DNA of 64,000 bases from Obrimoposthia wandeli. Its lineage: Eukaryota. Position 1 is the stretch's first letter; each line of letters begins with the position of its first letter. The stretch lies in assembly GCA_977020255.1 (NCBI GenBank), contig CDROCS010006906.1, positions 1 to 64,000 of the forward strand, in the 5' to 3' direction. Made by a program: the position numbers and the translations under genes. Under the pieces are notes generated by a model that was not told the origin of the DNA, did no database searches, and was given only the letters and a program-made list of their open reading frames with translations. Positions 1-54,823 of this stretch are shown here, in pieces.

Positions 1-3000
1 TTACTTATTAATCATAATTTTAATGATTGCAGTCAATAAATTGACTTGTAAACATAATATAATTTGCATATTTTCAATTTAATATATTGTAAGTTATTAC
101 TATAATATTACATTACATAAAAAGTAATTGATAGTTTACTATCGTTTACAATAAATTTATATACATATATTCACTTTAATATGTTGTAAGTTATTACTTT
201 ATTATAATTTCAACAAAAACTAAATAGTTTACTTATTAAACATAAGTTTAATGTTTTGTACAATAAATTGACTTGTAAACATAATTTATTTTGAGAGCAA
301 TTTCAATTTAATATGTTGTGATTATTACTTTAATATAATTTACAACAAAAACTTTAAATAATTTACTTGTAAACTACAATATTTATTTGTTGTTGTATAT
401 ATTCAGTTTAAAATGTTGTAAATTAATACTTATTATAATTTACAACCAAATCTTTAGTATTTACTTATTAATCATAATTTTAATGATTTGATCAATAAAT
501 TGACTTGTAAACATAATATAATTTGCATATTTTCAAATTTAATATATTGTAAGTTATTACTATAATATTACATTACATAAAAATAATGTTGATAGTTTAC
601 TATCGTTTACAATAATTTATGCATATATTCACTTTAATATGTTGTAAGTTATTACTTTATTATAATTTCAACAAAAACTTCAAGTAAGTTTACTTATTAA
701 ACATAAAGTTTGTCTTTGTACAATAAATTGACTTGTAAACATAATTTATTTTGGTATATTTTCAATTTAATATGTTGTAAGTTATTACTTTAATATAATT
801 TACAACAAAAACTTCAAGTAATTTACTTGTAAACTACAATATTTATTTGTTGTTGTATATATTCACTTTAAAATGTTGTAAGTTATTACTTTAATATAAT
901 TTACAACAAAAACTTCAAGTAATTTACTTGTAAACTACAATATTTATTTGTTGTTGTATATATTCAGTTTAAAATGTTGTAAATTAATACTTTAATATAA
1001 TTTTACAACCAAATCTTCAAGTAATTACTTATTAATCATAATTTTAATGATTTGATCAATAAATTGACTTGTAAACATAATATAATTTGCATATTTTCAA
1101 TTTAATATATTGTAAGTTATTACTATAATATTACATTACATATAAAAGTAATTGATAGTTTACTATCGTTTACAATAAATTTATGCATATATTCACTTTA
1201 AATTGTTGTAAGTTATTACTTTATTATAACTTCAACAAAAACTTCAAGTAGTTTACTTATTAAACATAAGTTTAATGTTTTGTACAATAAATTGACTTGT
1301 AAACATAATTTATTTTGATATATTTTCAATTTAATATGTTGTAAGTTATTACTTTAATATAATTTACAACAAAAACTTCAAGTAATTTACTTGTAAACTA
1401 CAATATTTATTTGTTGTTGTATATATTCAGTTTAAAATGTTGTAAGTTAATACTTTAATATAATTTACAACCAAATCTTCAAGTAATTTACTTATTAATC
1501 ATAATTTTAATGATTTGATCAATAAATTGACTTGTAAACATAATATAATTTGCATATTTTCAATTTAATATATTGTAAGTTAATACTGTAATATTTCATT
1601 ACATAAAAAGTAATTCATAGTTTACTATCGTTTACAATAAATTGACTTGTAAACATAATATATTTATGCATATATTCACTTTAAAATGTTGTAAGTTATT
1701 ACTTTAATATAATTTTCAACAAAAACTTCAAGTAGTTTACTTATTAAACATAAGTTTAATGTTTTGTACAATAAATTGTAAACATAATTTATTTTGGTAT
1801 ATTTTCAATTTAATATGTTGTAAGTTATTACTTTAATATAATTTACAACAAAAACTTCAAGTAATTTACTTGTAAACTACAATATTTATTTGTTGTTGCA
1901 TATATTCAGTTTAAAATGTTGTAAGTTAATACTTTAATATAATTTACAACCAAATCTTCAAGTAATTTACTTATTAATCATAATTTTAATGATTTGATCA
2001 ATAAATTGACTTGTAAACATAATATAATTTGCATATTTTCAATTTAATATATTGTAAGTTATTACTATAATATTACATTACATAAAAAAAGTAATTGATA
2101 GTTTACTATCGTTTACAATAAATTGACTTGTAAACATAATATATTTATGCATATATTCACTTTAATATGTTGTAAGTTATTACTTTATTATAATTTTCAA
2201 CAAAAACTTCAAGTAGTTTACTTATTAAACATAAGTTTAATGTTTTGTACAATAAATTGACTTGTAAACATAATATATTTATGCATATATTCACTTTAAA
2301 ATGTTGTAAGTTATTACTTTAATATAATTTTCAACAATAACTTCAAGTAGTTTACTTATTAATCATAATATTAATGATTTGATCAATAAATTGACTTGTA
2401 AACATAATATAATTTGCATATTTTCAATTTAATATATTGTAAGTTAATACTGTAATATTTCATTACATAAAAAAGTAATTCATAGTTTACTATCGTTTAC
2501 AATAAATTGACTTGTAAACATAATATATTTATGCATATATTCACTTTAAAATGTTGTAAGTTATTACTTTAATATAATTTTCAACAAAAACTTCAAGTAG
2601 TTTACTTATTAAACATAAGTTTAATGTTTTGTATAATAAATTGACTTGTAAACATAATTTCTTTTGGTATATTTTCAATTTAATATGTTGTAAGTTATTA
2701 CTTTAATATAATTTACAACCAAATCTTCAAGTAATTTACTTATTAATCATAATTTTAATGATTTGATCAATAAATTGACTTGTAAACATAATATAATTTG
2801 CATATTTTCAATTTAATATATTGTAAGTTATTACTATAATATTACATTACATAAAAAAGTAATTGATAGTTTACTATCGTTTACAATAAATTTATGCATA
2901 TATTCACTTTAAATTGTTGTAAGTTATTACTTTATTATAACTTCAACAAAAACTTCAAGTAGTTTACTTATTAAACATAAGTTTAATGTTTTGTACAATA

Positions 3001-6000
3001 AATTGACTTGTAAACATAATTTATTTTGGTATATTTTCAATTTAATATGTTGTAAGTTATTACTTTTTATATAATTTACAACAAAAACTTCAAGTAATTT
3101 ACTTATTAATCATAATTTTAATGATTTGATCAATAAATTGACTAAACATAATATAATTTGCATATTTTCACCTCATTATATTGTTTAATACTGTAAGTGT
3201 ATACTATCGTTTACAATAAATTGACTTGTAAACATAATATTTTATGCATATATACTTTAAATGTAAGTATTACTTCAACAACTTCAAGTAGTTTACTTAT
3301 TAAACATAAGTTTAATGTTTTGTACAATAAATTGTAAACATAATTTATTTTGGTATATTTTTCAATTTAATATGTTGTAAGTTATTACAATATAATTTTA
3401 CAACAAAAACTTTAAGTAAAAAACTTCAAATATTAACTTGTAAACTACAATATTTATTTGTTGTTGTATATATTCAGTTTAAAATGTTGTAAGTTAATAC
3501 TTTAATATAATTTACAACCAAATCTTCAAGTAATTTACTTATTAATCATAATTTTAATGATTTGATCAATAAATTGACTTGTAAACATAATATAATTTGC
3601 ATATTTTCAATTTAATATATTGTAAGTTAATACTGTAATATTTCATTACATAAAAAGTAATTCATAGTTTACTATCGTTTACAATAAATTGACTTGTAAA
3701 CATAATATATTTATGCATATATTCACTTTAAAATGTTGTAAGTTATTACTTTAATATAATTTTCAACAAAAACTTCAAGTAGTTTACTTATTAAACATAA
3801 GTTTAATGTTTTGTATAATAAATTGACTTGTAAACATAATTTATTTTGGTATATTTTCAATTTAATATGTTGTAAAATATTACTTTAATATAATTTTCAA
3901 CAAAAACTTCAAGTAGTTTACTTATTAAACATAAGTTTAATGTTTTGTACAATAAATTGTAAACATAATTTATTTTGGTATATTTTCAATTTAATATGTT
4001 GTAAGTTATTACTTTAATATAATTTACTACAAAAACTTCAAGTAATTTACTTGTAAACTACAATATTTATTTGTTGTTGCATATATTCAGTTTAAAATGT
4101 TGTAAGTTAATACTTTAATATAATTTACAACCAAATCTTCAAGTAATTTACTTATTAATCATAATTTTAATGATTTGATCAATAAATTGACTTGTAAACA
4201 TAATATAATTTGCATATTTTCAATTTAATATATTGTAAGTTATTACTATAATATTACATTACATAAAAAAGTAATTGATAGTTTACTATCGTTTACAATA
4301 AATTTATGCATATATTCACTTTAATATGTTGTAAGTTATTACTTTATTATAATTTCAACAAAAACTTCAAGTAGTTTACTTATTAAACATAAGTTTAATG
4401 TTTTGTACAATAAATTGACTTGTAAACATAATTTATTTTGGTATATTTTCAATTTAATATGTTGTAAGTTATTACTTTAATATAATTTACAACAAAAACT
4501 TCAAGTAATTTACTTGTAAACTACAATATTTATTTGTTGTTGTATATATTCACTTTAAAATGTTGTAAGTTATTACTTTAATATAATTTACAACAAAAAC
4601 TTCAAGTAATTTACTTGTAAACTACAATATTTATTTGTTGTTGTATATATTCAGTTTAAAATGTTGTAAATTAATACTTTAATATAATTTACAACCAAAT
4701 CTTCAAGTAATTTACTTATTAATCATAATTTTAATGATTTGATCAATAAATTGACTTGTAAACATAATATAATTTGCATATTTTCAATTTAATATATTGT
4801 AAGTTATTACTATAATATTACATTACATAAAAAAGTAATTGATAGTTTACTATCGTTTACAATAAATTTATGCATATATTCACTTTAATATGTTGTAAGT
4901 TATTACTTTATTATAACTTCAACAAAAACTTCAAGTAGTTTACTTATTAAACATAAGTTTAATGTTTTGTACAATAAATTGACTTGTAAACATAATTTAT
5001 TTTGGAATATTTTCAATTTAATATGTTGTAAGTTATTACTTTAATATAATTTACAACAAAAACTTCAAGTAATTTACTTGTAAACTACAATATTTATTTG
5101 TTGTTGTATATATTCAGTTTAAAATGTTGTAAATTAATACTTTAATATAATTTACAACCAAATCTTCAAGTAATTTACTTATTAATCATAATTTTAATGA
5201 TTTGATCAATAAATTGACTTGTAAACATAATATAATTTGCATATTTTCAATTTAATATATTGTAAGTTAATACTGTAATATTTCATTACATAAAAAGTAA
5301 TTCATAGTTTACTATCGTTTACAATAAATTGACTTGTAAACATAATATATTTATGCATATATTCACTTTAAAATGTTGTAAGTTATTACTTTAATATAAT
5401 TTTCAACAAAAACTTCAAGTAGTTTACTTATTAAACATAAGTTTAATGTTTTGTACAATAAATTGTAAACATAATTTATTTTGGTATATTTTCAATTTAA
5501 TATGTTGTAAGTTATTACTTTAATATAATTTACAACAAAAACTTCAAGTAATTTACTTGTAAACTACAATATTTATTTGTTGTTGCATATATTCAGTTTA
5601 AAATGTTGTAAGTTAATACTTTAATATAATTTACAACCAAATCTTCAAGTAATTTACTTATTAATCATAATTTTAATGATTTGATCAATAAATTGACTTG
5701 TAAACATAATATAATTTGCATATTTTCAATTTAATATATTGTAAGTTATTACTATAATATTACATTACATAAAAAAAGTAATTGATAGTTTACTATCGTT
5801 TACAATAAATTGACTTGTAAACATAATATATTTATGCATATATTCACTTTAATATGTTGTAAGTTATTACTTTATTATAATTTTCAACAAAAACTTCAAG
5901 TAGTTTACTTATTAAACATAAGTTTAATGTTTTGTACAATAAATTGACTTGTAAACATAATATATTTATGCATATATTCACTTTAAAATGTTGTAAGTTA

Positions 6001-9000
6001 TTACTTTAATATAATTTTCAACAAAAACTTCAAGTAGTTTACTTATTAATCATAATATTAATGATTTGATCAATAAATTGACTTGTAAACATAATATAAT
6101 TTGCATATTTTCAATTTAATATATTGTAAGTTAATACTGTAATATTTCATTACATAAAAAAGTAATTCATAGTTTACTATCGTTTACAATAAATTGACTT
6201 GTAAACATAATATATTTATGCATATATTCACTTTAAAATGTTGTAAGTTATTACTTTAATATAATTTTCAACAAAAACTTCAAGTAGTTTACTTATTAAA
6301 CATAAGTTTAATGTTTTGTATAATAAATTGACTTGTAAACATAATTTATTTTGGTATATTTTCAATTTAATATGTTGTAAGTTATTACTTTAATATAATT
6401 TACAACAAAAACTTCAAATATTTATTTTGTAATTTACTTGTAAACTACAATATTTATTTGTTGTTGTATATATTCAGTTTAAAATGTTGTAAGTTAATAC
6501 TTTAATATAATTTACAACCAAATCTTCAAGTAATTTACTTATTAATCATAATTTTAATGATTTGATCAATAAATTGACTTGTAAACATAATATAATTTGC
6601 ATATTTTCAATTTAATATATTGTAAGTTATTACTATAATATTACATTACATAAAAAAGTAATTGATAGTTTACTATCGTTTACAATAAATTTATGCATAT
6701 ATTCACTTTAATATGTTGTAAGTTATTACTTTATTATAATTTCAACAAAAACTTCAAGTAGTTTACTTATTAAACATAAGTTTAATGTTTTGTACAATAA
6801 ATTGACTTGTAAACATAATTTATTTTGGTATATTTTCAATTTAATATGTTGTAAGTTATTACTTTAATATAATTTACAACAAAAACTTCAAGTAATTTAC
6901 TTGTAAACTACAATATTTATTTGTTGTTGTATATATTCAGTTTAAAATGTTGTAAGTTAATACTTTAATATAATTTACAACCAAATCTTCAAGTAATTTA
7001 CTTATTAATCATAATTTTAATGATTTGATCAATAAATTGACTTGTAAACATAATATAATTTGCATATTTTCAATTTAATATATTGTAAGTTAATACTATA
7101 ATATTACATTACATAAAAAAGTAATTGATAGTTTACTATCGTTTACAATAAATTTATAATATATTTATGCATATATTCACTTTAATATGTTGTAAGTTAT
7201 TACTTTATTATAATTTCAACAAAAACTTCAAGTAGTTTACTTATTAAACATAAGTTTAATGTTTTGTACAATAAATTGACTTGTAAACATAATTTATTTT
7301 GGTATATTTTCAATTTAATATGTTGTAAGTTATTACTTTAATATAATTTTCAACAAAACTTCAAGTAAACTTCAAGTAATTTACTTGTAAACTACAATAT
7401 TTATTTGTTGTTGTATATATTCAGTTTAAAATGTTGTAAATTAATACTTTAATATAATTTACAACTAAAACTTCAAGTAATTACTTATTAATCATAATTT
7501 TAATGATTTGATCAATAAATTGACTTGTAAACATAATATAATTTGCATATTTTCAATTTAATATATTGTAAGTTATTACTATAATATTACATTACATAAA
7601 AAAGTAATTGATAGTTTACTATCGTTTACAATAAATTGATTTGTAAACATAATATGCATATATTCACTTTAAATTGTTGTAAGTTATTACTTTATTATAA
7701 CTTCAACAAAAACTTCAAGTAGTTTACTTATTAAACATAAGTTTAATGTTTTGTACAATAAATTGACTTGTAAACATAATTTATTTTGGAATATTTTCAA
7801 TTTAATATGTTGTAAGTTATTACTTTAATATAATTTACAACAAAAACTTCAAGTAATTTACTTGTAAACTACAATATTTATTTGTTGTTGTATATATTCA
7901 GTTTAAAATGTTGTAAATTAATACTTTAATATAATTTACAACCAAATCTTCAAGTAATTTACTTATTAATCATAATTTTAATGATTTGATCAATAAATTG
8001 ACTTGTAAACATAATATAATTTGCATATTTTCAATTTAATATATTGTAAGTTAAAAACTGTAATATTTCATTACATAAAAAGTAATTCATAGTTTACTAT
8101 CGTTTACAATAAATTGACTTGTAAACATAATATATTTATGCATATATTCACTTTAAAATGTTGTAAGTTATTACTTTAATATAATTTTCAACAAAAACTT
8201 CAAGTAGTTTACTTATTAAACATAAGTTTAATGTTTTGTACAATAAATTGTAAACATAATTTATTTTGGTATATTTTCAATTTAATATGTTGTAAGTTAT
8301 TACTTTAATATAATTTACTACAAAAACTTCAAGTAATTTACTTGTAAACTACAATATTTATTTGTTGTTGCATATATTCAGTTTAAAATGTTGTAAATTA
8401 ATACTTTAATATAATTTACAACCAAATCTTCAAGTAATTTACTTATTAATCATAATTTTAATGATTTGATCAATAAATTGACTTGTAAACATAATATAAT
8501 TTGCATATTTTCAATTTAATATATTGTAAGTTAATACTGTAATATTTCATTACATAAAAAGTAATTCATAGTTTACTATCGTTTACAATAAATTGACTTG
8601 TAAACATAATATATTTATGCATATATTCACTTTAAAATGTTGTAAGTTATTACTTTAATATAATTTTCAACAAAAACTTCAAGTAGTTTACTTATTAAAC
8701 ATAAGTTTAATGTTTTGTATAATAAATTGACTTGTAAACATAATTTATTTTGGTATATTTTCAATTTAATATGTTGTAAGTTATTACTTTAATATAATTT
8801 ACAACAAAAACTTCAAGTAATTTACTTGTAAACTACAATATTTATTTGTTGTTGTATATATTCAGTTTAAAATGTTGTAAATTAATACTTTAATATAATT
8901 TACAACCAAATCTTCAAGTAATTTACTTATTAATCATAATTTTAATGATTTGATCAATAAATTGACTTGTAAACATAATATAATTTGCATATTTTCAATT

Positions 9001-10571
9001 TAATATATTGTAAGTTATTACTATAATATTACATTACATAAAAAAGTAATTGATAGTTTACTATCGTTTACAATAAATTTATGCATATATTCACTTTAAA
9101 TTGTTGTAAGTTATTACTTTATTATAACTTCAACAAAAACTTCAAGTAGTTTACTTATTAAACATAAGTTTAATGTTTTGTACAATAAATTGACTTGTAA
9201 ACATAATTTATTTTGGAATATTTTCAATTTAATATGTTGTAAGTTATTACTTTAATATAATTTACAACAAAAACTTCAAGTAATTTACTTGTAAACTACA
9301 ATATTTATTTGTTGTTGTATATATTCAGTTTAAAATGTTGTAAATTAATACTTTAATATAATTTACAACCAAATCTTCAAGTAATTTACTTATTAATCAT
9401 AATTTTAATGATTTGATCAATAAATTGACTTGTAAACATAATATAATTTGCATATTTTCAATTTAATATATTGTAAGTTAAAAACTGTAATATTTCATTA
9501 CATAAAAAGTAATTCATAGTTTACTATCGTTTACAATAAATTGACTTGTAAACATAATATATTTATGCATATATTCACTTTAAAATGTTATAAGTTATTA
9601 CTTTAATATAATTTTCAACAAAAACTTCAAGTAGTTTACTTATTAAACATAAGTTTAATGTTTTGTACAATAAATTGTAAACATAATTTATTTTGGTATA
9701 TTTTCAATTTAATATGTTGTAAGTTATTACTTTAATATAATTTACTACAAAAACTTCAAGTAATTTACTTGTAAACTACAATATTTATTTGTTGTTGCAT
9801 ATATTCAGTTTAAAATGTTGTAAGTTAATACTTTAATATAATTTACAACCAAATCTTCAAGTAATTTACTTATTAATCATAATTTTAATGATTTGATCAA
9901 TAAATTGACTTGTAAACATAATATAATTTGCATATTTTCAATTTAATATATTGTAAGTTAATACTGTAATATTTCATTACATAAAAAGTAATTCATAGTT
10001 TACTATCGTTTACAATAAATTGACTTGTAAATATAATATATTTATGCATATATTCACTTTAAAATGTTGTAAGTTATTACTTTAATATAATTTTCAACAA
10101 AAACTTCAAGTAGTTTACTTATTAAACATAAGTTTAATGTTTTGTACAATAAATTGACTTGTAAACATAATTTATTTTGGTATATTTTCAATTTAATATG
10201 TTGTAAGTTATTACTTTAATATAATTTACAACAAAAACTTCAAGTAATTTACTTGTAAACTACAATATTTATTTGTTGTTGTATATATTCAGTTTAAAAT
10301 GTTGTAAGTTAATACTTTAATATAATTTACAACCAAATCTTCAAGTAGTTTACTTATTAATCATAATGTATTAATGATTTGATCAATAAATTGACTTGTA
10401 AACATAATATAATTTGCATATTTTCAATTTAATATATTGTAAGTTATTACTATAATATTACATTATATACATTATAAAAAGTAATTGATAGTTTACTATC
10501 GTTTACAATAAATTGACTTGTAAACATAATATATTTATGCATATATTCACTTTAATATGTTGTAAGTTATT
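1..10571. repeat. AT-rich higher-order satellite array (open at window start)
   Basis: Four related monomers share the core acttgtaaac...tgttgtaagtt.ttact: A ~116 bp (ends gtttactatcgtttac), B ~134 bp (ends aaacataagtttaatgttttgtac), C ~98 bp, D ~137 bp (ends aatcataattttaatgatttgatc). The usual order ABCD gives ~485 bp, with variants of ~385 and 564 bp. The array stops abruptly near 10571. Confidence 0.98.
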
Positions 10572-10627
10572 AGAATTTGTGTTCTTGTATTCAATGATTA
10601 ACTTTTATTAAACTATTATATAACATT

Positions 10628-11225
10628 GACACTCTTATTTTTAAAATTACATTCATTTGCTAAACCCGCTTACTTGTATTGAAATTCATACTATCAATCA
10701 CTTGCTCGTCATACTTGCATTCAATCTAACTATAATTTATTCAACAAAAACTCTATTTTAATTTACTTATAGTCTAAATTACACTTGCATTCAATCAAAC
10801 TATCGACACTCTTATTTTTAAAATTACATTCACTTGCTAAACCCACTTACTTGTATTGAAATTCATACTATCAATCACTTGCTCGTCATACTTGCATTCA
10901 ATCTAACTATAATTTATTCAACAAAAACTCTATTTTAATTTACTTATAGTCTAAATTACACTTGCATTCAATCAAACTATCGACACTCTTATTTTTAAAA
11001 TTACATTCACTTGCTAAACCTACTTACTTGTATTGAAATTCATACTATCAATCACTTGCTCGTCATACTCGCATTCAATCTAACTATAATTTATTCAACA
11101 AAAACTCTATTTTAATTTACTTATAGTCTAAATTACACTTGCATTCAATAAAACTATCGACACTCTTATTTTAAAATTACATTCACTTGCTAAGACTCTT
11201 ACTTGTAAATGACATTCATACTTGC
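10628..11225. repeat. 177-bp tandem repeat, ~3.4 copies
   Basis: gacactcttattt starts at 10628, 10805, 10982 and 11159 (period 177). The first three copies are near-identical; the fourth is partial and diverged. Confidence 0.95.
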
Positions 11226-11560
11226 ATGCATAATTTTATTCATTTACATTCATTCTACCTCTCATTTTATTCAAACTCTCATTCAAATATTCAAATAAAT
11301 TAATATTTTTACTAATTTTCTATTAATTCCGTTGTAACTTAGTCGTTGAAACGAAAAGAATGTATAAAGAATGGACTTTCTTACTTTGTAAATGTTATTC
11401 ACTTAAGTTTGATGATGATATTATGAAATTACATAATAAATGTGTATAATTTTGTATTATTCTCTGACTTCTTTCTTATTTTATTTTTTATTTTAATATA
11501 TAATTGAAGTTATTTAAAGAAATTTTATCATAATTCTATAAATGTGAAAGCCTAGAAAAA

Positions 11561-11724
11561 ACTTTGATCTAAATTTCACATAAAATAGTATGTATGTGAT
11601 TACGTAATGCATTCATTAACTTATAAGAGTGAACTTTAGCCTAAATTTTCACATAGAATAGTGTGTGTATGATTACGTCATACATTCTTAATTGGTAAGT
11701 GTGAACTTTATCCTAAATTTTCAT
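11561..11724. repeat. 72-bp tandem repeat, ~2.3 copies
   Basis: acttt..cctaaattt(t)ca starts at 11561, 11633 and 11705. The full units carry gattacgtaat and gattacgtcat. Confidence 0.85.
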
Positions 11725-11728
11725 TATG

Positions 11729-12096
11729 GACTAGATCACAAAAAAGAAGGGTGGAGACTAAGCCACTTGATCCTTTGAATTAGTGGTTAGCCAAAAATAA
11801 GGGTGGAGACTAGATCACAAAAAAGAATGGTGGAGACTAGATCACTAAAAGAAGGGTGGAGACTAAGCCACTTGACCCTTTGAATTAGTGGTTAACCAAA
11901 AATAAGGGTGGAGACTAGACCACAAAAAGAAGGGTGGAGACTAGATCACTAAAAGAAGGGTGGAGACTAAGCCAATTGACCCTTTCATAGTGATATATCT
12001 CAAAAAGAAGGGTGGAGACTAAGCCACTTGACCCTTTGAATTATGGACAACCATAGATTATAGCCAAAAGAAGGGTGGAGTCTAGATCACTTGACC
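11729..12096 (+). repeat. GA-rich minisatellite with fixed anchor aagggtggagact and 26/52-bp modules
   Basis: Anchor at 11747, 11799, 11826 (aatggt variant), 11852, 11904, 11930, 11956, 12008 and 12071 (gagtct variant). Spacings are 52, 27, 26, 52, 26, 26, 52, 63. Confidence 0.95.
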
Positions 12097-12289
12097 CCTC
12101 CCCTCCCCTCCCCGCCTCCCGCCTCCTCCTAAAGGGTGTCATACCATAAGGGTGTCTTGCCATACCATAAGGGTATATGTTGGGTCACCGAAGGTGAGGC
12201 AACATATACTCTTATGGTGTGGCGAGACATCCTTATGGTATGTCACCCTTTAGGGGGGGGCGGTCAAGTGGTCTAGACTCCATCCTTCT
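12069..12289 (+). other. Nested long inverted repeat (fold-back hairpin)
   Basis: Inner stem 12128-12189 pairs with 12193-12254 (62 bp, 55 Watson-Crick pairs, loop GAA at 12190-12192). Outer stem 12069-12096 pairs with 12262-12289 (28 bp, 26 Watson-Crick pairs). An asymmetric C-rich/G-run bulge separates the two stems. Confidence 0.97.
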
Positions 12290-12572
12290 ACCTACTCATG
12301 CAGTTCAATAAGTTCCATTTGGTAATCATCAGAACAGTCTTCCACTGCCAAATCAAAAGGGTGAGCAAATAATTTGAGTTGCATTTTATTTTGTCTAAAA
12401 TCAGGAAATCTATTTGTAAACTCGGCACACAGCTTTTGTACACCTGGGAAAAAAGTTGGGCTTAAATTAAAGCGATGAAAAGTATATGGCCAAATTTAAA
12501 ACTGTAAAATTAACCTTACTGTGGAGAAACAAATTCAAATCCTGCGGAAGGTAAAAAATAAATTTTGTTAGT

Positions 12573-12637
12573 GAGGGCCGCACTAACTTGCATAGAGGGC
12601 CGCATGTGGCCCGCGGGCCGCTTGTTGCGCACCCCTG
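12573..12637 (+). mobile_element. hAT/Charlie-type MITE right end (fragment)
   Basis: gggccgcatgtggcccgcgggccgc...gttgcgcacccctg is followed by atctagag, matching the Charlie subterminal palindrome, the CCCCTG terminus and the NTCTAGAN target preference. No left end was found. Confidence 0.7.
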
Positions 12638-12689: not shown

Positions 12690-13493
12690 TTATTATCCTT
12701 TCTTTTGTCAATTTTTCTGTGAATCCTAGCTTCACCTTTCATAATCAAGGTATCATATTTGGTAAAAACAACTTTTTGGAATTTTCCTAAATATTGAAGC
12801 TCAACACTTTCCAACTTGAAAATTCCAATTTCATCACCAAAAGCCATGCAACCAGTAGCAATTGTCACATCTCATACTTTATTTGAGTATTGTAGCCATA
12901 TCCTGATGCTTTTACTGTACAAATATAAAGATGTAACTTCAGCTGATTCAAAAAAGCTGTTAATGCTCACCTTCTGCATCTTCAGAAATAATTAGAAAAG
13001 GAAGTTTATGTTGGTGGATAAACTCTAAAACTTGAATAAAGTTTGAATATTAGATTTTTCTTTCCTGATAACAAAATGTTCGAGTATTGAAATCCACAAT
13101 TGGCATCTTTGTTTATTGATAATGTATGATGAGATACAGTAGCAATTAAACTTCAACCCCTCAATAACTTCTAGTTTTTCCATTCTCAACAGTAATTGTG
13201 CCATATTTACCCGCTTCCTTCATTCCGTCCTGAATAATATCACCAATGTTATTATTCCTATTAGCAGATATCGTGACAACTTGTGAAATCTCTTCCGGGT
13301 TTGTAGTTCGTCTTGGCAGAAATTTTAGACTTTTATCAACATTGTCCAACATATCCATCATAGTAACATCTTGGACTAAGTTTGCACTCATATTCTGAAA
13401 TGTCTTTCAATTTATTATCTTCGACCACTGTCACATCTGCTAATACATCTACTCTAACATAGTTGAACAAGCTTCAACATTAAATTTTACATA
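12690..13493 (-). pseudogene. HSPD1: Decayed, intron-less, 3'-truncated HSP60 (chaperonin Cpn60/GroEL family) pseudogene
   Basis: Collinear minus-strand fragments read VKFNVEACSTML, VDVLADVTV, QNMSANLVQDV, TTNPEEISQVVTISAN..IGDIIQDGMKEAGKYGTITVENGKT, KLPFLIISEDAEGE, TVKASGYG, and IATGCMAFGDE...LGKFQKVVFTKYDTLIMKGE. These match HSP60 motifs, with frameshifts, stops and deletions. Confidence 0.9.
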
Positions 13494-14272
13494 ATTATCA
13501 TAACATAAGCTTCCAACGACAGATATCGGTACTCGTGGAAGCACCACTCTGCTGCTACCATTGGCATTAATTTTATTTATAAACAACAATCCTTACTCAC
13601 AATCATACCTAATTTCACGTACATAAAAACATTAATTACTGGCTAATTATACCATTACAGATTACACAAAATATTGTGTAGACAATCACATGAAACAAAG
13701 TACTGTAATGTGCAAAAAAAGAAATGGTCTCTGATTAACCCATTTAAATGAATTCATGGTTAAACAAAATTTGATTATACCAATTAAATACCAACATTAA
13801 TACAAGTGTTAAAATTTTAACATCGTAAATCATCAAAAATAATTTTCTTTAATTTATATAATTTCATTGATTCATACTTTCATCTTTTCTCAAAAATATG
13901 ACGACTAAAGATACAATTTTCACCTTAAGACGATTAAAAAGCAACATAATATGAGCAGCAAAGTCATTTTGGAAAATCTGTTAAATTATGCAACTACTGA
14001 CAGTTGAAAGTAGATAATGAAATGAAAACAAAATTCCACCGATCCTAATTAGTAATAATTGATCAGAATTGAACAGTAGCAGTAATGGTAAGGTTAAGAA
14101 TGTCGTATTAACAATCTGCAAATCAAGTGAATCATTATTATCATTAGAAGACCAAGAAGGATCATAAGTAAAAGTAGCACAGGAAGCACGCCAGGAAGCT
14201 AACTTAGCAGTCCTTATGTACATGTACACAGCAGCGCACACAAAATGACATCCAGGAGGGGATGGTGATCGG

Positions 14273-14476
14273 TCAGCTGGTCTTGTTGCTCTTGCTGGAG
14301 TTAGAGCGTAGCAGCGAATTACTGGAGCTGCCGGCCGGGGAGTTGCCACCGACAGGGGTCTTGGGAGTAGCAGAGTCAGACTTCTTGACGGCACTGTTTG
14401 AGACTGCGACTCCTCCGTTGCCCTTGGACACAGTAACCGGGGTCTCAGGTGGCTGTGTGAATGGTGGGTGGGGACG
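14273..14476 (-). CDS. PPP2R5: Probable terminal B56 exon, Ser/Pro/Gly-rich tail ([10 protein letters not shown]...[13 protein letters not shown])
   Basis: Acceptor gtgtctcag in phase 0. GC content and C/G-ending codon use resemble the other exons. There is no family homology to confirm it, so this is the least certain exon. Confidence 0.65.
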   Translation of the reverse strand, partial: RPHPPFTQPPETPVTVSKGNGGVAVSNSAVKKSDSATPKTPVGGNSPAGSSSNSLLRSNSSKSNKTS

Positions 14477-17400
14477 CTGAGACACTCCATAACCACTCAA
14501 TAGACAGCATCAGAATACTTAAAGGTCTTCTAAAAATCGAGTCACAAATTCAAATAACAAATCGAAAGCAGCTGCCAATTTATTTGGTTAATGACGAATT
14601 TTATTACATTTGTATTACAATTTTCAACACAAAACAGCTTCTCAGCCAGTAAAAATATATTTCTGTACTCAATTTCAGACTCTTCGAGTAGTGTAATAAA
14701 TTCGCTATGATTATTTAATTTTTCTTTTACATGAACTATCTAAAAACATTGGTAAAGAGTTAGATCTTGTCAAAATGTACATTTCATTGACATTATCAAA
14801 TCTTCTAGTCGCTATGTTATAACAGGCCTCGGCATATTCAATTTTCTTCAGTTTATTGTCGGTCGTCACGGACAGGTCTTCCGTTCTTGGCTAATCACAT
14901 GGATTTGAAATACATTATAATATAATTAATAAATATTAGTTTATGTGTACGGGATATATAAATACAAAGGAGTTTCCAACAATTAATGATTTGTGTGTCT
15001 GCGTGCTACACACACATGGAGACTATACCCAGAAATTTAGGGCAATGAGATGTGAATGTCTATCATATTCTAGGGGAGTAGCAAATCATTGAATTCCTAT
15101 ACTTTATAAATAAAATTATTGACCATTGTAAGATAAACGATTTCTACTTGTAGTACTACATAAGCAAATTGTGTTAATTCCTAAAAATTGAAGTTATTGT
15201 AACAATAAAACTTTCGAATTAAACAATTATGGGTATAACTTTCAATTATCTTTCCCACTGAAATCTCTTATATCTTTATTTAAGTTTTAAAATCATGGTA
15301 GACAAATCGTCAAGTGCAAAGCATGGTCAAGTAAGAAGCGTAGTGAATTTTTATAGACAAGAAGCTCCTGGTGTAGCAAAAATGATCAATTTTAAAGAAG
15401 AAATCAAAGGAGGTTAAACGTTTACCTGCTAAATAGGATAACTACATGTTTTATTGATTCTTTTGTTGACTTCAAGCTTTCAAATTACTTTTTGCGTACC
15501 AAATAGATGTGTTTTTGAAGAACACATTATACGACTTATGTAATCAGAAGCCGGAAATATCCTACCGACAATATTTGCTTACAAAATCTCCTGTATACAG
15601 GTGTAAATATAAATTGGTTTGTAGAATCTAACTCTTTTGAATTATGTCTACAGTAGAAAACATAACTAAACGTGTTGTACAGAAAAAGAAAACATAATTA
15701 AAACTTTAAGAAATATTTTAACTTGATTGTATAATCTCACTTATTTATTGGATGTTGCGCAATACAGTCAGCATATTTTCAGATATTTTCATTTTACGTC
15801 AGAACTGGTGATGGGTTTTCATTTTTAAATGGGATATTTTTAATTTTAAATATAGATTTATTAAATATTATTGTTACACTTAAAATAAACGATGTTTTCA
15901 TCGTAAAACTGTAAAATTTTCGAATGTTAGTAAGAACAAAAGTTAAATTTCACTTTTTATAACACCGAAAAGATGTATTATTTTTTGTGTAAAAATAGAA
16001 TAGCAGAAAATATTTTAGAATAAAGCAAATCTGAGTATTTGTAGCATTATTCAATATGAATATTATTATTTTCATTTATTATCAAAAAAAATCGGTTTAT
16101 GAAAAAGATTAATTTAACTTTCGATAAATAAACCTCAAACTCAACAAAATAATCTACCGTGCTTTTCCAGAATTTAGATGAAATTTTATAAAAAAATATA
16201 TGCGTATTATATATTTAAAAAGATTATTTATTTGTAAATTTTAAAACATTTAGCTAAAAAGTAGTAATTTAAAATATTATATGGTTAATAACCATTGGTT
16301 ATACAACTAGAAAATGCGAGTAACTTTAATAATTAAAAAACTATACATTAAAAAACTTTTTTAAAATAATTAATTGAATGCTTGTCAGGCGACTATTGAT
16401 TTGTTATTATATGAATTTTTAATACAAATAATAAGGTCCTAAAGAAGTTACAGATCATTCTTTACGACGAAACATTTATCATTGTTGGATCGAGACAGCA
16501 TAACATTTGATTTTTTTTAAGAAACATCAAGAACAAGGCAAGTTTTTCACTGTTAATTGCTTTGCTTCGATGGATTTAGAAATGAGTCTGATATATAGAG
16601 TGCTAAAGAAGATAAAAGAAGAAAAGCCCCTTTCACAAAAAAATAGAACAGAACTAAGAAAGTCAAATTACTGGTTAAAAACACAAGAGAACGTATTGGT
16701 GCATCACAGACAAAGATGGCGAGTAAGTTTGGAATCAGCCAACAATACGTTCAAAAGATTCTCAATAAGTCAACTTGTAATACTACAAAAGAATGTCTGT
16801 TCCCAAGAGGAATAAAATAAAAAACAGCGAATCAAAAATTAATGTAGCATACTGAAAAAGATGGATGACGAGTCATATTTCAGCTTAAATGGTGGCGGAT
16901 GAAGTGCTAATAGAGGATTTTAAAAACAAAAAATTATGCTCTCATAATATTCGTTTCAAGGAAAGAGGGAAGTTTCCTCCTCGTGTTTTAGTGTGGTTAG
17001 CAATTGCAGAATATGGTTTGGTAAGTCGACTCTTCATGGATAATGGATAAATGACAGATGACATCAGCATCTGTTCTAACTTTAATTTTAACATTTGACA
17101 TGATCGAGCAACAGCTCATTACATGAAGTGTACCACTGATTTTTCTGAAAGAGATAAAATTAGTTTTGTGACACATAAAGACAATCCCCAAAAGGTTCCT
17201 GAACTTCGACCAATAGAGCACTTATAGTCGATTCTTAAGGCAAAAGCGTATGAAAATAGTTGGATAGCCAAAGACAAGAAGCAGCTAATTAGAAGAATAA
17301 GAAGGGAACTTAAAGATGCAGATAAAGCTGTTGTCCAACAAAGGATGTCAAATGTTAAAATTAAAGTTAGAACCGATGCTGATCAAGGAATTGTTAGTAT

Positions 17401-20400
17401 TTTAAATAAGCATACAAAATTTTATCATAGTTTTGTTTACTTTCTTAAAAATGTTTTTCAAAATATATGTTTTGATGGTTTTTTTCAATGTTCGAAGTTT
17501 GTCGCATTTTCTAGTTAAAAAAAAGTTTCAGTCCAACATAGATAAATGCTTCATCGTAAAAATGTAATGTAACTTCTTAAAAACTTAATGAATTATATTA
17601 AAAATGTATATGATACCAAATCAATAGTCACCTGATAAGCATACAAATAGTTATTTTAAAAAAATTTGTATGCATAGTTTTTTAATTTATTAAAGTTTGT
17701 CACATTTTCTAGTTGTAAGACCATTAAATCCTAGGAATAAAATAAGGTTCCCACCAAAGTAAATCAGTCATTATTTGCTGGCGAACTTATAGATGACCAC
17801 TGCATCAACATGAACTCAGCTACTCCCAAAATATCCATGTATACTTTAAACATAAATTAAGTAAAATGATCAATTAAAACGAAATGACTAAAACTACATG
17901 AAATTAAATATATTAAAAAATGTAATCACGTGCTTTTAAGCTTTTATTATCAACGAGATTTTGCGGTTAGTTTACTTTTTATGGTACAAATCTGGAAAAG
18001 TTCCTATTTTGCTTTGACTATTGCCACAACCGTTTAAAAATAAACATATGTGTAATACTTTACCAGACTTAGTGACCCTAAAATGACACAAACAAATTTA
18101 TGAGATTATTTCTCTACTGTTTATCTTTACCGCCGGTATAGGCGGGAAAATATTCACCTGTGGAGAAGACCATTTGCCGGAGTTAGCAATGGTGGGGTTA
18201 ATGATGGCACCGATGTTGCCTATGTCACCGGACTCTACAACCAGCTTCTGGTAGAGCGGATGTCTCCTAGCAACCGAATCGACGTGCTGCCACCACTCCT
18301 GGTGTCGCTGGATAGAGTCTAACTCTCTGTCGACAAGAAGGAACATTACAGAGCGTTATCTCATTCACAGTTATGTCGCATTCTTTCTGTCAAAATAGCG
18401 TATGTCCCCAATTGTGATTGTTGACGAACTTAAATTAGATTCAAAGTTTGTCAATGTCACTTGTGAAATATAGCTATTTTCGGGAATAATAGACAATGCA
18501 TAGACATATTCAAATAATCAATATTTCGACTATTATATGTTAAAGATTTTTAACATGAATAAATTATTTTTTAATAATCCGGTTATCTGTCAATTTTTTG
18601 CCAATTACTCAAATAATAGCTAGGCACTAAAAACCATACGAGAAGTTCGATACATTACACGTGATTATTATTATTTTTCTATAGGAGTGAATTAAAAATA
18701 AAAAACGAACGATACTAACTTATTCAAAATTCTCTATTGTGCGTAAAAAGCTCAATACGAATCAACGTTTATTTTTAAAGTGCGTGCTCGTAAGTTTTTT
18801 GATTTTGACATTACAATTGGACTTTTAGGTATTTTAAAATAAATATTAATTGATTTATAAATTAGTATAAAATAACAATTTCTTGAAATGTAGAATTCAC
18901 TAGTATATGTTATGAAAAATTGGCTAATTTACAGGTATGTTCTACTAAAAATATTTATTTTAAAAATTAGCGTAAATTGACGACTTGTTTTTGATATTTT
19001 GGGTTTATTTATATTTTAAGTTTTTGAAGGTATCGGAATTGGATTTTAATAATGAAAATATATTAACTAACTGTAGTCATATAGAAGATCAATTACAGGG
19101 AATATTTTTATCGGAAGATTACAGAATTGGCAGGAACTGGAAAGTGTAGGATGTTGTTTACCGGAGATGCATAAGCTAATCTTAAGCAAATCAAAGAAAT
19201 CACCGCCAAAGCAAAGTAAAGTTCGCAGGAATATGATTTGATAAAGAGGTACGTTGTGAGAGGGACCGACCAATCCCAAAGCCTCTATGTTCACAATGGA
19301 GCTCATCAGGCTTGTGAACATGGTGGGTAGGGGAGAACACTAACGGGAGATAAAGTTAGTTTGTTCATAGAGTATTGTAGAAATTGTTGGCTGAAACGAA
19401 CACGAACGAAAAAGGCATTGTTGAGAATCCTATCTGGTCAGACTTTAAGGAGCCGTTTTCAAGTTGATTTTATCGACATACATTGAAAAGGAAATATATA
19501 CAATTTAGTATATATATTTACTACATTTGGAGCACCTTATGTTTTAGAAAGTGAAAATGGACGGGAGTCTGCAGCAAGTGTAATTACAGAGTTGAAGTTG
19601 ATGTGGCCTAATCTGAATATTGTACTCGGGAAACCACAGCCCCACAAAGTCAGGGCAGTCTTGATAGAGCAAAACAGAGACGTAGAAGAGATGTTTCAGT
19701 GCTGGTTAAATAAAAATGGCTCCACCAGTGGTCTGTTGGTATTAAACTTGTTCTGTTGCAAAAGAACTCTTCTATGTTTCAGCTGTTTTGTCATCACATG
19801 ATCAAGATAAAGAATGCTAGAGAAACTGTGTTAACTGGATAGAAAAGAGCTGCAGAACAAATGAAGAGGGCTTCAGAAAAATTGTTCTTATTAGCTGATA
19901 TCAATAACACAGTTTTAGTTTTCATCTCTCACTACGATCGTACCAAACAGATCATAGTAATTCACTTCTCTTTGTGGCAAATTTGATATCAAACTCAGCA
20001 GAAACCAATTTCCCATTTCAAATTGCCCAATTCCGTGCATTATGTCCTCAAAATCATTGCGAGAGGTCGCAAAGGCAGCTAACAACGGCCACGGTCAAGG
20101 ATTCTTCCGTTGCAACTGTACTGGCAGTTGTATGTCCCACAGGTGAACTTGTAAAATAACAACCTAATGTGCAATATCCACTGTCATGTAAAGGGTAAAA
20201 GTGTAAAAAAAAAAATTTTTTTTCAAGGTGTTGATTTTAGAAATATTGATATCTATTCCCTACGTTGATTTTTCCCAATTCCAAGAAACAATGTGTCCTT
20301 TTAAAAAATTTACAATAAAATATTATAAAACTCTCCAAAGTATAAGTTTTAAATTACACAAAGGTAATGTTCAAGTCTTGAACTTCAAGAACATACATGA

Positions 20401-23400
20401 AAAACTCAAATTTCCAATAAACACAAATATCAAAACTAAATTTACGTCAATTTACACTTATTTATAACAACAACGAAATATTTTTAATAGAGTATATCTT
20501 TAAATTAGTCAATTTTTCAAAACCCATACAGGTGAATTTAAAATTGAAAGAAAAAGTTATTTTATACGAATTTATAAATAAATTATTATCTTTTAAAAAA
20601 TACCTAAAAGTTCAATTGTAATGTAAAAATGAAAAAGTACGCACTTTAAAAACGAACGCCAATATATCTGTTTCGTATTTCACTCAAATGCAATTATCCG
20701 TATTGCACACGACATACATAAAATAGCTTAAAATCCTACAATATCCAGGATTTTTTCGACACAAATTCCATGAGAAATTGATCCGACCTTTTCAATAAAA
20801 CGTAACAATAAAAAGTTTAAATATTGATACATTGTAATCAATTGTCAGTAAATCGAGTTAACATAGGGACAGGCATTATCATTATTGTAAATTAATCACA
20901 CTGGCTCAGCTACTAATAAGGTCTGGTTGGCCGATTCGAAATTTGAAGCTGTCAGTCGTATGCGTATGTGCGTTTGTGCAGTTGTTTAGACAAGTGGTCA
21001 TTGAGAATTGTGACTGCAGACGTATGGGGTGCCTGTTTGGGATATATAATAGCCAGAAGATTGTTTCAGTTGATATTGGATATGTGGAGAAATGAAGTGG
21101 ATGTTAAGTTGCATAGATTTTGACGAACAATGTAATATTTCCTTTGAATAGTGAATGAGATGATGTTGAGTTCGAGGCTTTTGGTGTATCGAGAGAATAA
21201 TGCAAAGTTGTGTTATTTGAAATCATGTTCAAATAATCTCGAATTTGAAAACCTTTGCTTGGTAGAATGACGGATTAGCGTTGTCTAGAGAACATTTACT
21301 TTATGTCGTTTTCCTTTTTGCTGGGGCCACTTACAGTCAAAATAGTAAAGTTGTATCATTGTGTTTTACAAATTCATTTAGTTTGGTATGTTTTCTTGCT
21401 TTTTTTCAAGAATTACCTAAAGAAAGCGTTCAGAAGTGTTTAGAATACTGTATAGAATAGTATACGGCATACAAAAGTATTTCATATTAAAATTATTTTG
21501 TTTTAATTGTTAGCATGTAAAGTTTAATTTTATTTCAATTGACCAAATTAGATGGCACACTCGAAATCCAAGCCAAAGATCGACCTGATGGACGTGTCTG
21601 TCAAAATCCAATAAGAGTCTCTTCTTGACACGTTACAAAACATACGTGCTGGAGAAACGTAATTGGACTAGTTTAAGCCGTTGCGGGCTACAGTAATTAT
21701 GTTGGTCAATATCAGTATTGTTTGATCTTTCATCTGGCAAAACTATGCTGCCATTTGTATCGACCAGATTTGTGGAGCCTCTCGTATATAAGAGACGGAG
21801 AGAGGCTCGATGTTTTGAAAAGTGTTTATGTGATTTTAGTTCAATACAAAGTTTGAGGATTTTTTGTTTAATATGCCGAAGAAGCCGCTAAAACAAGATC
21901 TGCTACAAAATCTTAACTATTTATAAACCTGTTCTATATTATATTAGCATTATGACACAATGATACAAGACGTCCCAAATGAATAAATAAATTTTGTTTA
22001 ATAATAGTTATTAAAAATAACAGTTACTGAAATGCACCAATAAACGCATTAACTCATAGGAAACAGTTTTGTAGTTTGAGGGAAATTGTTTATCCCAGTA
22101 GCAACTTTTCCCACCGTTTATAAATTTAATGTTTATCAGTTTCAAGAGTAAATCAAGGAACATTTGAAATTTAAGTTTTGCTTATAAATATTCAATGTTA
22201 TCTCCTCTATTCAATCCCAAAACTGTCAAACTGATTCTGTAATTCAATCCTTGTACCATAAAATCCGAGTTTATTCTGTGTTAATTTCAAATCCCTGTCG
22301 GCCTCTGAATGAGTAGTAGGATACGTTTCTCACATAATGGGCTTCACATAATAATCGATCGTACACAGAACACATCACAGAGAGTCACTGTCCCTCTTCT
22401 AATTTGACCAACTTTGACCAACCAGCCACAGGTCAAAATGGTATGAGAGCGAAGAGAAACCGAAGAGCACGAATGTATAATACTGGGTGTATTATCTATG
22501 GAATTAGTCAGGGAAAATGAAACACACATTGAGTATATGAACCATTATTTTCTAGCCATCCTGTGCACTGACATAAGTGGTCTTGTCACCAAACTTATAA
22601 ACATAGGCATTGTCTCGTGTGTAGCTGTTTTCAGAAGAGCTCGGATAACATTGACAGTTCATGAAAATTTTATCTTTAATTTACATTGAACTACTCTGGT
22701 AAAGATTTTTTTAATGCTTCAGTTGGATTACAATGCAGTATCTTTGCCGAGTGATCAATAAGTCACTTGGGGTAACTAAAACCCATTTATGATAAATAAA
22801 TAACCTAACAAGACTTAAATTATGTCCTCTACGAGACTAGACTAATTGCTGTTGATCAAAAATTGGTGTATGGTTAGCTTGTGGCATTGACAAATGTCTA
22901 GTAGTGGTGGGAAGAGTGATGGGGATGGATAAGCAGAGTTAGGAGAGCGGGTTGAAGAGAGAACAAAGCAGGACAGTTGACCGGAAGCTGTAGCAAGAGT
23001 TGTAGACTCGCTGAACTTTCTGACTGACACTGGAAAAATGTGTTTTGGACAGTGACAGACAAGCAATATTCCAGACTCCCTTCCCCCATTATGGAGCCGA
23101 TATAAGGTTGGGTCACAAGACAGAACGGCCAATCGGGAGTCTAGTGAATATGAATTATTCCTCAAGCAGTTCTGTAAACTTCAATAAAGTTGTAGAACAT
23201 AAAATCTATTAAATCGGAACACTCTTTTATATTACGAAAAAATGTGATGTAATAGTAATATAGAACTCACACATACAAAATCAATCACACACCACATCTA
23301 AGATAAATGTACAAGAACTTTGAGGATATTACTTTTGACGCAAATACAATAGTCTAATGAAATCGTTATAACTTTTAGCGTAAAAGTTCAAGATTGGATT

Positions 23401-50055: not shown

Positions 50056-50388
50056 CTGCACAAGAACAATCCTCAATATCAGAGAAGAGATATGTAAAAT
50101 ATAGTTAAACTAAATGAGGGAAAAAGGGAAACAAAAAAGTTTTCATAAATTTTAAAATGTATCAACCATATTTGTTTGTAAGAAAATCCAACTTCTAATT
50201 TTTAGCAGATTTTATGCATATCACTTTCAACATTCTTTATACAGTATTATTTTGAGTCTGGAAACTTTTTAAATGATTATAATTTATAAACGACAAAATA
50301 TTTATTTCTAAATATTATTAATAATGCTCAATAACTATTCAGCGCATGGAATAATTGGTTCAACGTCATAGAAAAATAAAGTAGTTAC

Positions 50389-51205
50389 TTTGTTTGAATA
50401 ATAAGATCATTTTGAAATCAATGTTTTTTATAATAAAGTACCTACGTAACAAAAAATCAAATATATATTTATTTATCTACCAGTTTTGTGCGAAACTTTG
50501 TGTTGATTCATAACTTGAGTAAATATTGATCTTTTTCATCGATAAATGTGAATATAAATTTGAAACAACCATAAATATTATATTCGTGATATATAGTTTT
50601 ATGTTGGCGTCATTTCAGGGGTGATTTTGAGTACGGTTGTTATTTGCTGAGAGTGTATATGTAATTGTGTCGATAGAAATGGTCCTTGATGGACGTCTAA
50701 TTGTTGGATATCTCTATATTTTAAGTGTCTGATTTGATTCTATTATGTGAATAGATGAGAAAGTAATTTACCCTAATTTTTTATTTATAAACCGAACTCA
50801 TGTAAAATTTGCAGATCAAATATCATGGTATCATAGACCAGGAGTTCCCAAACATTTTACCGCGGAACCTTTGGTATTATTTAAAAAATATTGGAAGCCC
50901 TACCTATTTAAAAATACTTAAAATCATAAAGTGAAAAATGAATAAAAAATTTAAAGTTAAACTAATGAAGAATTTATTAAGTAGTTATAGTGGGCCTATG
51001 CCCTGGTAAGTAGAGGCGAGTAGCGTTAATGCCAATTTAGTAAATTTATTTTTATTAAATGTCGGCTTGAGAAACCCCTGATTTTGTCTACGGAATCTTC
51101 TTTGGAAACTCCTGCCATAGACTAATTATTTACAATGAAATATGGTTAGGTCAGATATTTTAGCATGTCATGTGAGGATTTGAAAATATTATTTTACACT
51201 AAATC
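50389..51205 (-). repeat. Right arm of the inverted repeat pair, interrupted by a hAT MITE
   Basis: Mirror alignment to 48602-49101 holds on both sides of the 50839-51114 insertion. Confidence 0.9.
50839..51114. mobile_element. hAT-family MITE, 276 bp
   Basis: TIRs caggagttcccaaac and tttggaaactcctg, with an 8-bp TSD tcatagac (50831-50838) / ccatagac (51115-51122). Confidence 0.9.
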
Positions 51206-54139: not shown

Positions 54140-54823
54140 GCCATCAGGAGGTTAATAAAGAGATCGTGCTGGCCAAGGTAACAATGCAATCTTGTGTGTC
54201 TGAAAGGTTATTCTTGCAACACGACTCATATGTCGTCCTGCCTTGTCGCGTGTTGAAAAATTAAATGGTTTTCGTGAACAATATTATTATTTCTTCTACA
54301 TATTGCTCAGCATTAAGATTCCCATTATTGCAATCGTCGCCCTTCCTTCATACTAGTAACTTCCCCAAATCATCACACTTCTGTCGCTGTATTGATCGTG
54401 CTCAGCAATACAACGCTCAAAAAATCTCTGCTGGCAAGCTTTTCCATAATTTTTATCTATCATAAATCGTGATTCACCAGACCACATCACTCCCTTCCAG
54501 AAATATTTTGGTATTGTTATAAAATTTTCGCCCCATTGTAGACTTGTAGACGGAGAGCTTTGTGTTGAAAACATAATTCGTTGAAGTGGTCTGTAGCTCT
54601 TGTATCCACAACATAGGGCTCTTCTATAAGCTGTTCTTATTGAGCAAGGAAGTTGGTTACCTGGATAATTGCTCCTTATTATTCGTGGAAACGATGAAAA
54701 CGATTTTTTAAAACATAAATTATAAATCTCTTGTCGTTTAGCTTTGTTCCTTCGTGTGGTCCGTCGTTTCTTAGTTTTATGTTGACATTTCTCTTCACCA
54801 TTTTCGAACTGTATTTCGATCAC
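54140..54823 (-). mobile_element. Tc1 transposase remnant
   Basis: ORF 54353-54823 contains FWKGVMWSGESRF (W..V.WSDESRF) and SVMIWG; downstream LLPWPARS (WPARSPDLNPIE). Confidence 0.85.

Follow-up and report, generated by a model that had tools for sequence, protein, structure and literature searches.

What is the fold-back at positions 12069–12289 of the 64-kb window (the whole stretch of DNA analyzed here), and why do its mismatches lean toward one strand? This fold-back is the top short-loop hairpin of the window, with a score of 44; the runner-up scores 19, and the maximum among 100 shuffles is 10. It is real and non-random. The reading that we favor, to which we assign a probability of roughly 0.4, is that a large mobile element carrying repeats has its subterminal fold here, the element end being most likely that of a Gypsy-type LTR and the fold forming in plus-strand RNA. 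The features on which the argument draws are listed in Table 1.

Table 1. Features of the hairpin, the repeat block to its left, and the junction to its right
Feature	Positions	Strand	Remarks
Satellite, 17% GC	1–10570		Four monomer classes (96–134 bp); 463–480 bp higher-order repeat; extends beyond the window
177-bp repeat, 3.4 copies, 96% match	10628–11222		Minus strand carries AAG(A/G)GT(G/A)
72-bp repeat, 2.3 copies	11560–11723		From repeat analysis
Array of short (26–27 bp) and long (52–63 bp) units	11729–12068	+	Purine tract and AAGGGT core; last unit onward forms the hairpin's left arm
Left (5′) arm, 121 nt	12069–12189	+	Array's last unit (12069–12094), bulge (12095–12118), three direct AAGGGT-core repeats
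Four-tract G-quadruplex motif	12095–12120	−	Pattern match; same position as the plus-strand hairpin's bulge
GAA loop	12190–12192	+	Closed by C12189-G12193; 5-bp apical stem below a 2×2 G:G internal loop
Right (3′) arm, 97 nt	12193–12289	+	Paired throughout; three of four reversed AAGGGT cores broken
9-nt tail ending in CA	12290–12298	+	Candidate element terminus, abutting the hAT relic; reads TG on the minus strand
hAT relic, interrupted neighbor	12299–12637	−	Terminal-repeat-like end at 12637; GTF2IRD2-like transposase fragment 12299–12444

A pair-by-pair listing bears out the preliminary description of the fold-back, including its cGAAg loop, the mismatch counts of its stems, and the lack of any A·C pair. 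The two separate stems drawn there, however, are better described as a single 97-pair stem with a 24-nt C-rich bulge, in which 12069–12094 pairs with 12264–12289 and 12119–12189 with 12193–12263. The stem comprises 86 Watson-Crick, eight G·T, two G:G, and one T:T pair. Four G·T pairs lie in the 62-bp inner stem (12172/12210, 12163/12219, 12158/12224, and 12152/12230), together with the T:T (12139/12243) and both G:G mismatches (12183–4/12198–9), and two lie in the 28-bp outer stem (12075/12283 and 12087/12271). The remaining two, which raise the G·T count from six to eight, fall in the G-run/C-tract, where the register was picked for best pairing. A TA dinucleotide stands on either side of 12132–12250. 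The G-quadruplex motif opposite the bulge is the sole four-tract instance in the window.

As proposed earlier, the minus-strand fold is the less stable. The predicted RNA energy is −169.9 kcal/mol on the plus strand (z −18.9) versus −142.1 on the minus strand, and the DNA energy −88.9 versus −78.3, with 0 of 200 shuffles equally stable on each strand in both cases. The apex has the same energy on both strands in the folding model; C-GNA-G is an extra-stable DNA loop. The preliminary description also invoked read-through from a neighboring B56 gene. Exons of this gene are indeed present on the minus strand, but the nearest verified one is ∼14.8 kb away, so read-through has little bearing on the fold.

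The earlier proposal that all six transitions form plus-strand G·T pairs beyond what strand neutrality would give holds against an in-window control. Seven other inverted-repeat alignments in the window contain G·T 57 times and A·C 53 times, besides 144 mismatches of other kinds. Relative to these, a G·T/A·C ratio of 6/0 gives a one-sided Fisher p of 0.023 and a ratio of 8/0 a p of 0.0069, both post hoc and from small numbers; the probability of at least six G·T among seven mismatches, with the apical G:G excluded, is 7 × 10⁻⁴, and among nine, with G:G included, 5.7 × 10⁻³, again post hoc. We rejected an element-wide mutation bias as the source. Among 80 satellite monomers, minor alleles show no strand bias, with C>T plus A>G counted five times versus four for G>A plus T>C, and the corresponding counts in the 177-bp repeat are two versus one, so that, on these small numbers, a block-wide mutation bias is not evident. 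Pure neutral decay is likewise an unlikely source of the wobbles, and on balance we think that their bias reflects selection rather than mutation. G·U asymmetry has been described as a mark of the strand on which a structured RNA is read (PMC1892782).

A second asymmetry, absent from the preliminary description, lies between the arms. The outer left arm is the final unit of the 26/52-bp array, which with this unit extends to 12097, and the inner left arm consists of three further AAGGGT-core repeats of 17, 21, and 22 nt. An A>T change common to both outer arms is absent from all eight array units, which indicates that this left arm served as the template for the right one. With the array repeats as outgroup, the changed base lies in the right arm at all five mismatches that can be polarized (two-sided p of 1/16, calculated by hand): C>T at 12210, 12230, and 12283, A>G at 12219, and A>T at 12243. 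The four other mismatches away from the apex have no assignable polarity. All four AAGGGT cores of the left arm are intact. Counted more widely, forward cores carry G>A in 0 of 12 cases and reversed cores C>T in four of eight (p = 0.014), a comparison that leaves out one C-tract match of nine and in which three of the four C>T changes are the hairpin's own. Together with the in-window control, the confinement of polarizable changes to the right arm supports a single-stranded fold of the plus strand, as the preliminary description had proposed.

Under the favored reading, the element's own repeat array would have given rise to the hairpin by inverted copying. Afterwards the 5′ arm would have retained the intact AAGGGT motif, and drift in the 3′ arm would have been almost confined to changes that still pair as G·U. 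Drift of this kind is what single-stranded use of the plus strand would predict. The long units of the array form small plus-strand stem-loops (three of the four were folded, with z of −2.8 for two and −1.7 for one), and wobble-type variants occur within these as well, for example C>T at 11771.

The same asymmetry would fit a hairpin-RNA or miRNA-like locus, transcribed on the plus strand from the AT-rich region, in which a conserved 5′ arm gives rise to small RNAs and the 3′ arm persists as a G·U-paired passenger. The 21- and 22-nt repeats begin with U and have positions 2–7 in common, the conservation of one arm and wobble drift of the other are as such a locus would have them, and a TATA-like site lies at 11537. 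Endogenous Drosophila hpRNAs are comparable hairpin RNAs. As in the present hairpin, one arm of G:U hairpin RNAs carries wobble-keeping changes that break the DNA repeat but leave the RNA duplex intact; in plants, such hairpins silence yet avoid self-silencing (PMC9263138). The arms here, however, match only the element's own array. No Rfam family reaches its gathering score, and the three sub-threshold matches are driven by the hairpin itself, including MIR169_6 (35.1 vs 54 bits) and mir-3117 (30.8 vs 80); the likeness to miR169, a plant family, was rejected. The locus also sits at a rearrangement junction, its arm strings have no match in the literature searched, and its 3-nt loop is short for a pre-miRNA. 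We regard an RNA locus of this kind as distinctly improbable, although it is compatible with a position at the end of an element.

Leftward from the hairpin, the array is followed by the 72-bp repeat, an AT-rich stretch, the 177-bp repeat, and the satellite. The motif AAG(A/G)GT(G/A) has 18 matches in 10600–12298 and 18 in the remaining 51.7 kb, with none in the satellite; on the strength of this common motif, 10600–12298 is held together as one unit. Satellite and 177-bp repeat show weak homology in a 55-column alignment with a score of 42, reached by 0 of 300 shuffles, in one of 90 comparisons. It is probable that everything from the satellite to the junction is one element, of which we infer the satellite to be a part; the satellite would then have expanded from the element's internal repeats. 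Further candidate likenesses are to gypsy insulators, En/Spm subterminal repeats, geminivirus iterons, baculovirus hrs, and EBV oriP. As separate observations, the two 72-bp repeats contain palindromes at 11600–11607 and 11675–11680, presumably CRE/ATF-like, a label that would suit an enhancer; and the satellite copies are 96%–100% identical, with indel-rich stretches near 200–700 and 3050–3500 that resemble long-read errors.

On its right side the block abuts the relic of a hAT transposon. The preliminary description had found neither a Rep nor a transposase frame linked to the hairpin; there is no Rep frame among those scanned, but transposase sequence lies directly beside it. The fragment is 58%–76% identical to GTF2IRD2-like transposases (seven of eight candidates), and we take the end at 12637 to be a Charlie/SPIN-type terminal repeat. 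In all seven relatives Gln follows ELIEL, whereas the window reads ELIELH (CAT) and then breaks off, so that the hAT frame is severed inside the codon for a conserved Gln. None of the remaining transposase sequence lies in the 64-kb window. The relic is an interrupted neighbor and not the mover. The sequence across the junction is CTACTCA followed by TGCAG. Because the hAT match ends after a shared CA, the foreign block begins with TG on the minus strand, that is, it ends with CA on the plus strand. The simplest junction, 12298/12299, lies 9 nt past the stem and needs no additional host change; an alternative two bases further in is possible if one host base has mutated. This junction supports the earlier suggestion that the fold marks the end of an element, and the hairpin probably lies at that end. 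The construction of the arms from the upstream array motif, the truncation of the hAT relic by the block, and the LTR-like CA end are all new relative to that description.

The terminal 14-mer of the block (12286–12299) has a one-edit direct copy on the plus strand 1 kb inside, at 11253–11265, a kind of partner found for five of 605 control 14-mers. This near copy may mark an earlier end, or else a templated tail. It would suit a templated repair insertion, and to that extent it counts against an LTR. In a one-off repair event, a broken plus strand would have folded back at the GAA mini-hairpin and copied its left arm except for 24 nt of the C-tract, then acquired a short templated tail and been joined to the hAT relic; the wobbles would then be mispairs introduced by the polymerase as it made the new arm, or due to chance. 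Such an event accounts in one step for both the right-arm position of the changes and their G·T pairing, and the window holds a single copy of the hairpin. It requires nine errors in the copying of ∼90 bases, a much higher rate than polymerases usually show, and sits poorly with the wobble-type variants in the array's own stem-loops and with the improbability of pure neutral decay. We consider a repair origin unlikely; if the hairpin does prove to be single-copy, it would be a repair scar of little interest.

The favored reading instead has a large tandem-repeat-carrying element inserted into the hAT relic and ending at 12298. Most likely, this would be the 3′ (R/U5) end of a plus-oriented Gypsy-type LTR, and the hairpin would fold in RNA transcribed from the element. 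TG…CA is the established LTR terminus, and the CA at 12297–12298 agrees with it, a signal of two bases. Giant Gypsy elements with tandem repeats are known from planarians (PMC6431247), and the 3′ UTR repeats of plant Ogre elements grow into satellites (PMC7004042). An LTR 3′ end owes its place as the leading class to the CA end and these two precedents. With the giant Gypsy LTR elements of Dugesiidae, Burro and GYPSM1, the block shares a probable host group, repeats within a large element, and the CA end; the description of those elements consulted here mentions no long LTR hairpin (PMC6431247). The block also differs from them in that its repeat tract exceeds 10 kb and the window holds no ORF of the element. 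If the block is plus-oriented, its satellite, short repeats, and terminus follow in the same order as in Ogre/Tat elements, but these are a plant lineage in which the link to gag-pol has been demonstrated (PMC7004042).

Several searches bear on this assignment. No matching LTR start was found in 1–12298, the part of the block that lies inside the window, where TGAG on the plus strand is found solely at 292 and 12195; the sole purine tract followed by TG outside the array (11348) has a weak tract and only the TG in common with the block end. CA-then-TGG matches inside the repeats, judged by eye, do not read as tRNA primer sites. A 207-bp mini-LTR at 12076–12282, with a purine tract and TG…CA, was rejected because pairing runs seven bases beyond it. 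A Pfam scan of the 290 longest of 338 frames of at least 45 aa beyond position 10500 detected no reverse transcriptase, integrase, or Gag frame linked to the block; the scan also missed the hAT and HSP60 fragments and is accordingly of limited sensitivity. Two patterns had no match in GTDB genomes or in phage and plasmid records, which carries little weight because those collections are prokaryotic. Literature searches with array, arm, and satellite strings returned only unrelated human-gene papers, and further arm strings returned nothing; the repeat strings do not occur in the searched portions of the PMC6884822 supplement or in three searched files of PMC11410931.

Against the LTR class also stands the C-GAA-G loop, which suits DNA better than RNA. 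This apex would be at home in an element end with a single-stranded DNA phase, either Polinton/Maverick-like or belonging to an unclassified linear element. There, the 3′ end of the plus strand would fold into a GNA-capped hairpin, an initiator or integrase of the element would bind to the AAGGGT array, and across from the bulge a G-quadruplex can form on the other strand. Besides the loop, an oriented-site array adjoins a dyad carrying the same sites, and the opposite strand does bear the G4 motif. Maverick/Polinton ends carry (AGT)2//(ACT)2 or (AG)3//(CT)3 (PMC8097293), and CCTACT at 12291–12296 matches five of the six bases of (ACT)2, two bases inside the preferred junction; S. mediterranea has Polintons (PMC8532177). 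The match is inexact, however, and a junction at that point needs an additional Gln-to-His change in the hAT frame. The other terminal inverted repeat, a 6-bp duplication, and the core genes were not seen in the window, with no PolB or integrase among the 290 frames scanned, and the paper on the Maverick end motif says nothing of hairpins there (PMC8097293). We hold an end of this type to be unlikely; it would point to an unclassified element.

A more specific form of this idea is a giant satellite-carrying flatworm element, so far unclassified, that replicates via single-stranded DNA, has the oriented site array and the 97-bp GNA-capped dyad as its origin, and seeds large satellites as it spreads. 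The far arm of the dyad would have lost its sites and kept its pairing, with the G-quadruplex opposite, exactly over the bulge. Array-plus-dyad origins are familiar in DNA viruses and are not known from animal transposons; we consider this form quite unlikely. Whether the class is an LTR or a single-stranded DNA end, the arms divide the labor, one keeping the motif and the other the pairing. If it is an LTR end, a large flatworm retroelement would have a defined RNA structure that is apparently under selection, and the block would be an animal case of satellite growth from an element.

The other classes put forward in the preliminary description, a TA-flanked MITE, a parvovirus or densovirus terminus, and a Helitron or Helentron end, are taken together very unlikely. 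TA does flank 12132–12250 on both sides, as a MITE would have it, but pairing extends 13 bp past this boundary and then through the outer stem. TA is self-complementary and the pairing continues beyond it, so the apparent duplication is merely part of the palindrome. No 2–10 bp duplication surrounds the whole fold, and its left arm is an array unit. A triloop at the tip of a long terminal hairpin would suit a parvovirus; among the 290 longest frames beyond 10500, in a scan of limited sensitivity, there was no match to NS1, capsid, or Rep. Flip/flop inversion would moreover swap G·T and A·C in every round and so would not keep a wobble bias on one strand, which disfavors a parvovirus further.

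A Helitron 3′ end is CTRR, which is lacking here. Helentrons have a 3′ palindrome of 5–10 bp and TT flanks (PMC4067079). Like the HINE/DINE-1 Helentrons, the block is non-coding, has central tandem repeats, and carries a palindrome close to its 3′ end (9 nt here, 8–35 bp there), with a T directly after the block end; its palindrome, however, measures 97 bp, about ten times the Helentron size, and the TT flank is missing (PMC4067079). A search of the literature for a link between Helitrons and satellites found none.

An origin outside mobile elements would be either a long non-coding region of mitochondrial DNA copied to the nucleus or a displaced rDNA spacer, settings in which classes of repeats and hairpins on one strand are common. 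It is suggested by triclad mitochondrial non-coding regions, which reach 11 kb and contain tandem repeats and stem-loops (PMC4856072, PMC12870015, PMC10991399). Of 20 distinct published S. mediterranea primers, the four that were tested matched at best with 7–12 mismatches. ARAGORN in bacterial mode gave no tRNA match, and no rRNA match was found; nor does the satellite show strand-biased mutation. The array motif is absent from the part of the planarian 28S 3′ region that was compared, and a supposed likeness of the array unit to the 28S 3′ end was not borne out there. We judge both sources to be extremely improbable.

The DNA is ∼30% GC and carries a divergent, long-intron PP2A B56 gene on the minus strand (14276–50109), whose best named match, at 61%, is from a monogenean flatworm. 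Its exons were located at 49825–50061 (elsewhere bounded at 49798–50109), 46918–46980, 46016–46183, 35104–35280, 32890–33018, and 27114–27218 (elsewhere 27114–27263), with a candidate last exon at 14276–14509; the exon at 46183–46019 is 73% identical to the monogenean match. The host is thus likely to be a flatworm, probably a triclad. An assembly gap of 232 N (46668–46899) adjoins one exon. Inverted repeats of 500 bp (85%; 48701–49194 and 50295–50809) flank the exon at 49798–50109, and additional inverted matches lie at 48602/51205 and 49197/51893; this arrangement could favor exon skipping, back-splicing, or editing. Frames with DTG protease-like and CWYH Gag-like motifs in a B56 intron (47733–48150, minus strand) have no Pfam match and are presumably a Gypsy relic.

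Other decayed sequences are scattered through the window. A mitochondrial-type HSP60 fragment (13164–13560, minus strand; E ∼4 × 10⁻¹² to solved HSP60 chains) contains stops and an internal deletion; when HSP60 was searched for clues to the host lineage, 0 of 31 candidates exceeded the threshold. An element at 16275–17744, which looks to us Tc1/mariner-like, has long terminal inverted repeats, an HTH_3 frame, and an internal 39-bp inverted duplication (17063–17101/17345–17383). In another, at 18766–20658, the inverted repeats are 260 bp long and an integrase-like frame (∼19450–19750, no Pfam match) is broken; by eye we take this element to be Ginger/KRBA2-like. The minus strand also carries an HTH_23 fragment (54798–54959) and a DDE_1 transposase fragment (57050–57256; E = 1.5 × 10⁻⁷). 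A 56-bp direct repeat with 98% identity recurs 7.8 kb apart, at 55287–55342 and 63108–63163.
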